Virus record (IMG/VR): IMGVR_UViG_2811995091_000080
Span: 1 to 64,000 of that record
Strand: one strand, 5' to 3'
DNA length: 64,000 bases
Origin: a virus
Lineage: Duplodnaviria; Caudoviricetes
Each line of letters opens with the position of its first letter. Position 1 is the first letter of the stretch. Below the pieces are notes generated by a model. It was not told where the DNA came from, did no database searches, and was given only the letters and a program-made list of their open reading frames with translations. The translations under genes were made by a program, and so were the position numbers. Shown in pieces: positions 651 through 44,840 of this stretch.

Positions 651-695
651 GTTATGCTTTATGCGTTACCCCTTGTCAAACGCAAATTGCATTAT
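651..695 (-). promoter_or_regulatory. pL of A with two repressor operators
   Basis: Minus strand TTGACA-17-CATAAC. GTTATGCTTTATGCGTTAC (651-669) is nearly the reverse complement of 1066-1084. Second related site at 677-695. Confidence 0.75.
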
Positions 696-1018
696 TTTTG
701 CACTTCTGCCAATCCGCGCAGGTATCCGATGGCTTCTGCCTTCTTAATCGGCGGTAGCTGGCGGAAGAGTCGCACCACCTCGGCTTTGGGATCGTCCGTC
801 TCTCCGGGAGCATCGCCCTTGCCATATAAGAGCCATTCCTCCGTCACCTTATAGCGCCGGGCGTAAATAGCTGCTTTCTTGGCGGGAAAGCCTCGACTGC
901 CGTTTTCGTGGCCTAGATATGTGGAGACGGGAAAGCCTAGCGCCTCGGCTGCTTCCTTGCCCGTATTATACCCTGCCCGCACTCGGGCGTGGCGCAATCT
1001 GTCTGCTGGCGTGTCCAT
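692..1018 (-). CDS. XRE-family prophage repressor (cI-like, 108 aa, no S24 peptidase domain)
   Basis: HTH (RLRHARVRAGYNTGKEAAEALGFPVSTYLGHENG), divergent from cro. Likely start ATG 1018. Confidence 0.85.
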   Translation of the reverse strand: MDTPADRLRHARVRAGYNTGKEAAEALGFPVSTYLGHENGSRGFPAKKAAIYARRYKVTEEWLLYGKGDAPGETDDPKAEVVRLFRQLPPIKKAEAIGYLRGLAEVQK

Positions 1019-1090: not shown

Positions 1091-1288
1091 ATGCGTAGCC
1101 ACACCGAAATCATCGAAGCCGTAGGGGTCGAGCCTTTGGCCGAGCTGACCGGCAAGTCCATTCATACCATCCGCTCCTGGAAGCAGCGCAAGCGCATTCC
1201 GGTGGACTGCTGGCTGCTTCTCGTAAGCGAAGGCGCGGCGGGTGCTGACGAACTCATGTCAGGCGTGGCGCAGGGACGCGCAGCGTGA
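1091..1288 (+). CDS. Cro-like protein / transcriptional regulator
   Basis: Short HTH (VEPLAELTGKSIHTIRSWKQRKRIP) divergent from the repressor. Confidence 0.8.
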   Translation: MRSHTEIIEAVGVEPLAELTGKSIHTIRSWKQRKRIPVDCWLLLVSEGAAGADELMSGVAQGRAA

Positions 1289-1290
1289 TG

Positions 1291-1503
1291 CTAGCCGGTT
1301 CGCCTGAATGGGATCGCCCCGCGCTTCTCGAAAAAGCCCTCAGCGACAGCTTGGCTTTCCTCGACGGCTTGCAAGAAGTCGTGCGGCAGGAAACCGAAGC
1401 GCAGGTCGCGCCCGCCGCATGGGATGGACAGGATAAACAGGCCGCGCTCCTCACAAAAGGTCGGCGGCCCCTCAGACATAACGAGCATTCCTTTTCGGTG
1501 CAT
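1291..1503 (-). CDS. Small antisense protein, candidate SOS-induced antirepressor
   Basis: Strong RBS GGGAGG inside a LexA box. Positional counterpart at 44317-44544. Confidence 0.6.
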   Translation of the reverse strand: MHRKGMLVMSEGPPTFCEERGLFILSIPCGGRDLRFGFLPHDFLQAVEESQAVAEGFFEKRGAIPFRRTG

Positions 1504-1518
1504 GTTCCCTCCCTGTTC
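1504..1518. promoter_or_regulatory. Alphaproteobacterial LexA (SOS) box GTTC-N7-GTTC
   Basis: GTTCCCTCCCTGTTC directly abuts the ATG of 1291-1503. Retained in B at 44545-44559. Confidence 0.7.
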
Positions 1519-1631
1519 TCTTTTGGAACGGTAGTCAACATGCCGGATCGAGTCCGGTCAATCTGCGCAAAAACACCTGTCCCGCATCGGGATAAGCCTT
1601 TGGCGAGAATATACAATTTTGGAGGTGCGGC

Positions 1632-1781
1632 ATGATCCTCGCGCTTGTCTGCATCGTCATGTGGGCCGTGTTCTTCGGCCTTCTTCGCCTCAACGAGCAT
1701 GTGCGGAGCCGCCACCATAGCGGCTCTACTCGCACCGATGTTTTGTCCTTTCCTCATGATTGGAGTGATACCAATGCTTAG
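1632..1781 (+). CDS. Small single-TM protein
   Basis: MILALVCIVMWAVFFGLLRL..., RBS GGAGG. Homolog at 44673-44840. Confidence 0.55.
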   Translation: MILALVCIVMWAVFFGLLRLNEHVRSRHHSGSTRTDVLSFPHDWSDTNA

Positions 1782-29233: not shown

Positions 29234-29248
29234 GAACAAATTGAGAAC
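29234..29248. promoter_or_regulatory. LexA-like box GAAC-N7-GAAC
   Basis: GAACAAATTGAGAAC, intergenic, upstream of the phosphoesterase. Confidence 0.5.
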
Positions 29249-32914: not shown

Positions 32915-32929
32915 GAACGTATAATGAAC
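32915..32929. promoter_or_regulatory. LexA-like box GAAC-N7-GAAC overlapping TATAAT and the holin ATG
   Basis: GAACGTATAATGAAC. Confidence 0.45.
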
Positions 32930-43710: not shown

Positions 43711-44028
43711 CTAGTCGACCTTCGCCCCTATCAAAGCGGCTACTACACCCTCGATCTGGCGGCGCTGTTCGCGGTTGGCTTTATCCCACATCGTCCAGAT
43801 AGGCGGGTTATCGGTGGGGTCGCGCTCGATCAGGCTGGCGGTGTCGGTTTTCAATGCCGCCGCCAATCGCTCAAGCGTCTCCTGGTTATACTGCAACAGG
43901 CCCCGCTCCATCTTCGACAGGTTGCCCTTGTCGATGCACGCGGCGGTGCTGAGATCGTCCAATGTCATGCGGCGAAACTTGCGCCATTCGCGCACGAAAG
44001 TCGGCTTGTGAATCGGGCTTTTGTCCAT
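43711..44028 (-). CDS. XRE-family prophage repressor of B (105 aa, no S24 peptidase domain)
   Basis: VREWRKFRRMTLDDLS...KGNLSKMERG HTH, little similarity to repressor A. Start likely ATG 44028. Confidence 0.85.
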   Translation of the reverse strand: MDKSPIHKPTFVREWRKFRRMTLDDLSTAACIDKGNLSKMERGLLQYNQETLERLAAALKTDTASLIERDPTDNPPIWTMWDKANREQRRQIEGVVAALIGAKVD

Positions 44029-44122: not shown

Positions 44123-44323
44123 ATGGAACCCAACGAACGATTGAGCGCATGGCTGAAAGCAGCCGATATGACGCAAGCGGAAATGGCCCGTAAGTGTGGC
44201 TATGACCGTGGAAACTTTCACCGTCTGCTGAATGGGAAGCTGCGCCCCTCGCTGCACTTGGCCTTTGCCATAGAGCGCGAAACGAAGGGAGCGGTCCCCG
44301 CTGATGCATGGGTGCGTCAATGA
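44123..44323 (+). CDS. Cro-like HTH protein
   Basis: MTQAEMARKCG...LLNGKLRPS...AIERETKGAV. Confidence 0.85.
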   Translation: MEPNERLSAWLKAADMTQAEMARKCGYDRGNFHRLLNGKLRPSLHLAFAIERETKGAVPADAWVRQ

Positions 44324-44544
44324 CCGCCCGTTGCCCTGATGGGCAGGACCTTGCCCATCGCGAGGCGGCGTTCTTCGGTTTCGTAGTCGTTGAGCCTGCG
44401 GATCTCGGTTTCGAGGAACTTGCGGTAGGTGCTGCGACTGCATCGCCAGTGGTTCGGCTCGTCTCCGCTGCAACTGACGCCCCTGACGCCGTGCGCGTCG
44501 AAGGTGGTCTCGGGGATGTTCTCGTAGAACTTAATCGCAGGCAT
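44317..44544 (-). CDS. Small antisense protein, candidate SOS-induced antirepressor of B
   Basis: RBS GGGAG inside a LexA box. Positional counterpart of 1291-1503. Confidence 0.6.
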   Translation of the reverse strand: MPAIKFYENIPETTFDAHGVRGVSCSGDEPNHWRCSRSTYRKFLETEIRRLNDYETEERRLAMGKVLPIRATGGH

Positions 44545-44559
44545 GTTCTCTCCCTGTTC
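44545..44559. promoter_or_regulatory. Alphaproteobacterial LexA box GTTC-N7-GTTC
   Basis: GTTCTCTCCCTGTTC. The single difference from A falls in the spacer. Confidence 0.7.
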
Positions 44560-44672
44560 TCTTTTGGAACGGTAGTCAACATGCCGGATCGAGTCCGGTC
44601 AATCTGCGCAAAAACACCTGTCCCGCATCGGGATAAGCCGTTGGCGCAAATATACAAATTTGGAGCAGCAGC

Positions 44673-44840
44673 ATGATTTTCGCAATCATCGCCGTTGTCG
44701 CGTGGGCCTTGTTCTTCGGCCTTTTCGTGGCGCGCGACCTCTACCTCGATCAACCGCAGGATGTGCGGGAGCGTCAGTGGGACGCCCCCTGCTGCACCGA
44801 TGTGGTTTTCCCTTTCCATGACAATGGAGATAGCCAATGA
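44673..44840 (+). CDS. Small single-TM protein
   Basis: Homolog of 1632-1781. Confidence 0.55.
   Translation: MIFAIIAVVAWALFFGLFVARDLYLDQPQDVRERQWDAPCCTDVVFPFHDNGDSQ

Follow-up and report, generated by a model that had tools for sequence, protein, structure and literature searches.

A putative LexA operator encloses the ribosome-binding site of a small gene convergent with cro in two tandem heteroimmune prophages

The window analysed here is the whole stretch of 64,000 nucleotides, which opens a virus record of 83 kb and has a GC content of 60%. It holds two prophages in tandem, A and B, which are related yet heteroimmune, the gene order starting anew after approximately 43 kb. All records with the locus are marine metagenomes. 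The virus record contains no host DNA; that the host is an alphaproteobacterium is suggested by two observations, namely a GcrA-like gene in a related locus and the hosts in which the nearest cI relatives occur. Scans of the window with Rfam and for tRNAs returned no matches. The early genes that could be identified encode HNH endonucleases, a primase, a helicase, a NinB-like protein and similar products, and no Ant-, KilAC- or ImmA-like gene was found by Pfam and PHROG among 30 early-region ORFs. The features of the two immunity regions are as follows.

692..1018, minus strand: repressor cI-A, 108 aa, an HTH with a short C-terminal helix and without S24 (Pfam, PHROG)
1091..1288, plus strand: cro-A, approximately 65 aa, divergent from cI-A and convergent with small gene A
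1291..1503, minus strand: small gene A, 70 aa, convergent with cro-A across a 2-nt gap, with a C-terminal P-F-R-R-T-G tail
1504..1518, minus strand: putative LexA operator A, GAAC-AGGGAGG-GAAC, directly 5' of the ATG, an exact match
1533..1538 (A) and 44574-44579 (B), minus strand: TTGACT hexamer, -35-like, 14 nt upstream of the box, invariant as ATGTTGACTA
1556..1561 (A) and 44597-44602 (B), minus strand: second hexamer, TTGAC(C/G), candidate -35 of a leadered promoter
1580..1592, minus strand: 5-bp hairpin followed by a T-run, kept in all copies
1500..1631 (A) and 44541-44672 (B), no strand: conserved intergenic module of approximately 130 nt with variable genes on either side
43711..44028, minus strand: repressor cI-B, 105 aa, HTH only
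44123..44323, plus strand: cro-B, 66 aa, HTH domain
44317..44544, minus strand: small gene B, 75 aa, its 3' end overlapping the end of cro-B by 7 nt, with a P-I-R-A-T-G-G-H tail
44545..44559, minus strand: putative LexA operator B, GAAC-AGGGAGA-GAAC, an exact match

The first-pass annotation of this DNA described the two repressors as lacking the S24 autopeptidase domain, and our analysis agrees, the Pfam matches of both proteins (105-108 aa) being to HTH families only. The conclusion that cI-A and cI-B cannot self-cleave is thus supported. The cI-A protein has 157 homologues, which make up a large family of short repressors; the only named one is found in Alteripontixanthobacter maritimus (Erythrobacteraceae). 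The placement of the small gene within the immunity cassette was likewise confirmed: the order is cI, cro, small gene, with the small gene lying beyond cro and convergent with it. The stretch from the small gene to cro/cI showed no terminator.

Several lines of evidence bear on the coding status of the small ORFs. Codon-position GC is.63/.45/.75 for small gene A and.54/.49/.82 for small gene B, like that of the terminase and tail genes, and pN/pS is 0.13-0.41 across the small genes, with 0.13-0.40 for small gene A, and 0-0.14 for cI. Gene callers found full-length homologues of 70 and 75 aa in other assemblies, and small protein A has homologues at 80-97% identity as well as remote ones. The small gene evolves faster than cI, cI-A being 100% identical where ORF-A is 80% identical. 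Judged by these codon and substitution patterns, the small ORFs of both prophages are real genes under purifying selection. The plus-strand ORFs at 1285-1635 and 44308-44676 were considered as genes and rejected, their codon-position GC having the appearance of an antisense strand.

Neither small protein has a Pfam or PHROG match at E <= 0.1, and neither matches the known antirepressor families (Tum/DinI-like, Ant, KilAC/BRO). A HMMER search with an ORF-A profile against 1.8 billion representatives recovered only two remote orphans of 70-75 aa. ORF-A and ORF-B had been reported to have little in common beyond a P-x-R end, and indeed BLASTP gave no alignment between them and hhalign aligned only the tail (E 0.055-0.08). 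The C-terminal tail that they have in common, [ILV]-P-x-[RK]-x-[TA]-G (1291-1320 and 44317-44349), is written in different codons in A and B. The tails (P-x-R-x-T-G) are predicted to be disordered, and could act as a docking or degradation tag for a common host factor.

Structure prediction brings the two proteins closer together than their sequences do. The AlphaFold2 model of ORF-A (pLDDT 82.7) places antiparallel strands at residues 15-19, 22-29 and 32-38, and then a long helix (40-60), the tail being disordered; in that of ORF-B, which is less confident (pLDDT 72.7), the strands fall at 14-16, 19-26 and 29-35, with the helix spanning 37-62. Both models thus have one beta3-alpha topology, with the order and positions of the elements nearly equal. 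Note that the sequence comparison is not significant, so the agreement rests on predicted topology. The earlier picture of exchangeable, unrelated ORFs fits poorly with this shared topology, which leads us to read ORF-A and ORF-B as more likely to be diverged alleles of one positional family. Searches for relatives of known structure gave nothing above noise: the ORF-A profile found nothing below E 0.6 among PDB sequences, the best Foldseek match of ORF-A to the PDB had E 0.5 and its best match in BFVD had E 0.03 (all uncharacterised proteins), both within noise, and the best VIA-align scores, also within noise, were to COMM and PUR-like beta3-alpha units (Z 5.6). ORF-B had no usable match in the ESM Atlas. 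On the chromosome of Alteripontixanthobacter maritimus (L159 1950-2342), the ORF in the same slot is 130 aa long and resembles a tandem beta3-alpha duplication.

To the right of the small genes lies the conserved block. The 90-nt identity noted previously between the two prophages is exact (1509-1598 = 44550-44639), with bounding mismatches at 1508/44549, in the box spacer, and at 1599/44640, and the immunity regions are otherwise dissimilar as described, cI and cro to the left of the block being unrelated between A and B. Similarity extends past the identical stretch, at 89% over 1500-1682 (family D8). The right-hand gene beyond the block varies independently of immunity type in six close loci, and a further locus (L164) has yet another right-hand neighbour gene. 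We aligned the block from nine loci, to which two more were added later for a total of 11. A variant of the block found in L003-L006 has diverged at almost every base between the motifs, and its coding strand keeps ATGTTGACTA, then 11 nt, then GAGAACA-(T/G)-GGAG-(A/G)-GAACATG. These comparisons support the block with its box being a conserved module common to two heteroimmune prophages. The hairpin at 1580..1592 carries one change among the copies, which is G-U compatible on the minus-strand RNA only; it bears a weak resemblance to a terminator and might shield the SOS promoter against leftward read-through. Searches with the block in the INPHARED phage collection and with an exact 25-mer of it in viral_contigs were both negative, and BLAST of the block to 401 Sphingomonadales genomes yielded nothing beyond brief chance matches within host membrane-protein genes. 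Directly after the block, most relatives have a plus-strand ORF for a hydrophobic protein of 49-55 aa (1632-1781 and 44673-44840 in the window), which starts MILAL or MIFAI, contains W-A-V/L-F-F-G-L and has no family match.

The box itself conforms closely to its earlier description. A perfect GTTC-N7-GTTC at 1504-1518 and at 44545-44559 adjoins the ATG of the minus-strand ORFs (CAT lies directly to its left), the coding-strand spacer AGGGAGG or AGGGAGA is Shine-Dalgarno-like, so that the box contains the ribosome-binding site, and the sole difference between A and B within the box falls in this spacer (1508/44549). All 11 loci agree in the box tetramers, the ATG and TTGACT, the variation within the spacer falling at positions 2 and 7. 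The whole window contains 6 matches to GTTC-N7-GTTC compared with 1.72 expected from shuffles. A further GAAC at 1526-1529, which had been read as a half-site following the box at the same 11-bp period, is present in the window but absent from the diverged block copies, and was rejected as a third operator half-site.

GTTC-N7-GTTC is the published LexA consensus of Caulobacter (10.1101/2025.01.26.634973). In five Sphingomonadales/Hyphomonas genomes, which are not necessarily of the host clade, a perfect box occurs in 7 of the 10 lexA/recA upstream regions; some of these boxes have GC-rich spacers (CGCGTCC, AAGGGGA), and in some of the genomes the box lies 18-20 nt 5' of the lexA ATG. The assignment of the box as an alphaproteobacterial LexA operator is, on the exact match, its conservation and its SOS-gene geometry, very likely correct, and the small gene is probably under LexA control.

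The geometry that the box shares with host genes can be stated as a pattern, TTGACT-N14-GAAC-N7-GAAC-ATG. This pattern is present in 23 viral contigs (viral_contigs, L008-L030) compared with 6 for a reversed control pattern, and at 120 or more loci, at least, in species-representative genomes (genome_contigs, L031-L150). Approximately 56 of the 80 titled records that carry it are Alphaproteobacteria. The genes starting at its ATG encode an ImuA-like protein, DnaE2, a Y-family polymerase, RadC, a radical-SAM repair protein and others. Because the pattern fronts SOS genes across the Alphaproteobacteria, it is, judged by this distribution, the standard SOS promoter of the class. In its canonical form the operator spacer is A-rich and lies 17 nt after the -35, where it would serve as the -10; transcription is then predicted to begin at the A of the ATG and to give a leaderless mRNA.

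The phage loci share with canonical SOS promoters such as that of imuA-imuB-dnaE2 the same orientation and the same succession of TTGACT, 14 nt, GAAC-N7-GAAC and ATG. They differ in that the spacer (AGGGAGG, AGGGAGA or ATGGAGA) is a Shine-Dalgarno sequence and a poor -10, rather than A-rich, and in that a second TTGAC hexamer is conserved 17 nt upstream. If TTGACT were the -35, CAGGGA or CATGGA would have to act as the -10, both of them poor, and the transcript would lack the Shine-Dalgarno sequence. A Shine-Dalgarno sequence precedes the small gene in all relatives, with or without the box, so translation of the small gene is probably leadered and the start is probably upstream. The TTGAC(C/G) hexamer stands exactly 17 nt upstream of TTGACT in both block variants, the intervening 17 nt being different. 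Transcription perhaps starts from this TTGAC(C/G)-17-TTGACT arrangement, which would place the box at approximately +10 to +25. A sigma-70 consensus scan of 600-1800 found no promoter-like site. The sequence TACCGT, put forward in the first-pass annotation as a candidate -10 of the small gene, was discarded, as the copies of the block do not preserve it and no -35 lies at a suitable spacing from it. In this subgroup the promoter of the small gene would be a copy of the standard SOS promoter in which the operator spacer has become a ribosome-binding site.

Each prophage also contains two additional perfect boxes at orthologous positions.

29234-29248 (A) and 73238-73252 of the record (B, L175): box GAAC-N7-GAAC directly after the stop of the preceding gene
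32915-32929 (A) and 77519-77533 of the record (B, L176): box and start codon overlapping at the second tetramer (ATGAAC)

The box at 29234 lies approximately 75 nt before a gene for a 388-aa HTH-metallophosphoesterase (phrog_704); in prophage B approximately 300 extra bases separate the box at 73238 from that gene. Between these two copies 4 of the 7 spacer bases differ, while all 8 tetramer bases and the flanks are kept, and the box at 29234 is probably a second LexA-gated node. At the other position (32915/77519) the contexts have diverged and the box is kept in both prophages. Here the box precedes a small membrane-like ORF of 79 aa in A and a different ORF of approximately 70 aa in B, and its spacer in A, GTATAAT, is -10-like.

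We also examined how closely the small gene follows the immunity genes. In six of six close loci the small-gene type agrees with the cI/cro type, an agreement that adjacency alone could give. Two other loci depart from it. In L152 an ORF-A-like protein is paired with a B-like cro and cI, and in L163, a metagenome contig of 1237 nt, the block and box are followed by 39 codons of ORF-B and then by a third cro/cI type. Since ORF-B of L163 ends at codon 39, the immunity swap there appears to have cut inside the small gene, and both arrangements caution against a strict one-to-one pairing of small gene and immunity. In L002 (3216-3569) a T5orf172/MUG113-type gene sits exactly between small gene A and cro-A.

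At greater distances the gene and its position outlast the operator. Phages with cI-A-like repressors (64-74% identity) have an ORF of 65-130 aa with the same sequence pattern in the small-gene slot, and the remote relatives P0011 and P0013 are convergent with a cro-like gene beside a short HTH-only cI. Relatives of the small gene at 20-50% identity occupy the same position without a LexA box, and GAAC-N7-GAAC, with one mismatch allowed, is absent within 200 nt at all of the more distant loci. By its distribution the small gene is an old member of this immunity-region layout. Because the distant loci keep the gene and its position without the box, LexA coupling appears to be limited to one subgroup, and the basic role of the gene need not be linked to SOS. 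The earlier proposal of a fixed LexA module therefore stands for the two prophages, which have it in common, but not for the distant relatives. One locus has a different element in place of the box: at L160 2115-2130 a 13-bp palindrome, AGTGTGTCACACT, replaces the LexA box before the small ORF in the same slot. The cI of L160 is 74% identical to cI-A, and its palindrome is unlike cI operators, which suggests that a different regulator controls the same gene slot.

The reading that we prefer, to which we would assign a probability of roughly 0.4, is that the small gene is held off by LexA, is freed by DNA damage, and inactivates the cognate non-cleavable repressor. During lysogeny the box would be occupied by LexA of the host and the small gene would be off. 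Upon DNA damage LexA would be cleaved and the small protein made, which would then inactivate the HTH-only, non-cleavable repressor of its own phage. PR would open, and rightward transcription would pass antisense through the small gene, damping it again. We infer here LexA occupancy, the transcription start and, above all, the target of the small protein, and the designation of the gene as an antirepressor is correspondingly tentative. Counting against an antirepressor, the SOS transcript could read antisense through cro and in the sense direction into cI, which would not obviously favor induction.

A somewhat less likely explanation is that the LexA operator is real and that the small protein is an SOS-induced cargo product or switch accessory with another target, prophage induction depending on something else. 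Such a target might be Cro, a host factor reached via the P-x-R-x-T-G tail, or RecA/LexA modulation in the manner of DinI or GIL01 gp7. Many unrelated small ORFs stand behind the same SOS promoter in other viral contigs, away from repressors; the only motif common to ORF-A and ORF-B is the tail, hinting at a common partner over repressor-specific contacts; and both the lack of the box in distant relatives and the much faster evolution of the small gene than of cI (80% compared with 100% identity) fit an accessory. What this explanation does not account for is that position and linkage with cI and cro have been kept over a wide divergence. The repressors, moreover, need some route of inactivation, and no other induction gene was recognised among the 30 early-region ORFs.

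It is improbable, in our estimation, that the unit acts at the level of RNA, as a PRE- or oop-like leftward promoter whose SOS transcript runs antisense to cro and on into cI, stabilising lysogeny or timing the decision, with the peptide being secondary. The promoter lies to the right of cro and is directed at cro/cI, cro and the small gene end 2 nt apart in A and share 7 nt in B, no terminator was detected on the way to cro/cI, and the lambda pO/oop unit provides a precedent for a LexA-sensitive antisense unit in the equivalent region. Against a secondary role for the peptide, the ORF is under purifying selection, its Shine-Dalgarno sequence is kept in all relatives and its predicted fold is confident; raising cI and lowering cro upon DNA damage would also oppose induction. 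Equally doubtful is the proposal that the box is no LexA site, the GAAC repeats being incidental flanks of the ribosome-binding site and the block a recombination linker between mosaic modules or the target of a phage regulator. In its favour, variable genes flank the block on either side, the box spacer is GC-rich where those of canonical promoters are A-rich, and in L160 the box is replaced by another palindrome. In favour of a LexA site are an exact match at the canonical distance from the -35, tetramers that stay invariant as neighbouring bases change, two more positionally conserved boxes in each prophage, and the occurrence of GC-rich spacers at host lexA and recA boxes.

An antirepressor released by LexA would have clear precedents. 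LexA-repressed antirepressors act on non-cleavable repressors in 186 (Tum), Gifsy (GfoA/GfhA) and N15 (AntC) (Lemire et al. 2011, PMC3121763). Like those systems, the present one has a predicted host LexA operator at the promoter of a small phage gene, a phage repressor without an autocleavage domain, and several co-resident prophages wired to one signal. Unlike them, its small proteins show no sequence relationship or recognisable fold relationship to the known ones, the LexA motif is of the alphaproteobacterial, direct-repeat type, the gene is inside the immunity cassette and convergent with cro rather than at a distant locus, and the operator encloses the ribosome-binding site. As the small protein is outside the known antirepressor families, a resemblance to them in the way it works is the most that could be claimed. 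Relative to the known antirepressor design, what would be new here is the protein family, the alphaproteobacterial operator, the in-cassette location and the operator placed around a ribosome-binding site.

Two other systems offer partial parallels. The oop RNA of lambda is a non-coding antisense RNA against cII that is reported to respond to LexA. The unit described here resembles oop/pO in being leftward, convergent with the PR operon and just past the cro-side genes, and differs from it in encoding a conserved protein and in facing cro. Vibrio phage modules are reportedly run by their own transcription factors, independently of DNA damage, unlike the present case, where the proposed input is LexA. 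The likeness to these linear plasmid-like phage modules is in the short, family-less proteins, which are proposed to inactivate the cI of the phage that encodes them in polylysogens (Silpe et al. 2023, PMC10432266). A literature search conducted at survey depth found no induction mechanism for alphaproteobacterial prophages with short non-cleavable repressors. To our knowledge none has been described for this group.

If the small protein is indeed the trigger, these genes would represent a new antirepressor family and a compact, portable SOS-input module, and the heteroimmune allele pair in one lysogen would lend itself to tests of specificity and cross-talk. It is possible, though we advance it with slightly more reserve than the preferred reading, that beta3-alpha mini-proteins encoded convergent with cro are the immunity-specific antirepressors of a large group of alphaproteobacterial (probably Sphingomonadales) lambdoid prophages whose repressors are short and non-cleavable, one subgroup of which has acquired the host SOS promoter, its LexA operator placed around the ribosome-binding site. 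On this view heteroimmune prophages in one cell would fire on a common signal, each by way of its own allele, and with two further LexA-gated nodes per phage LexA would govern the lytic programme at several points.

The arrangement TTGACT-N14-box-ATG also provides a simple rule for finding SOS-controlled genes and phage cargo across the Alphaproteobacteria. Behind the canonical SOS promoter in many prophages is a family of proteins of approximately 95 aa that start MKHRRGI and contain two CxxC pairs (L010, L017, L019-L021, L029, L030 and others in viral_contigs; L042, L071 and L080 in genomes). The gene is often followed by a partner ORF of approximately 100 aa, and the family belongs to no Pfam or PHROG family.
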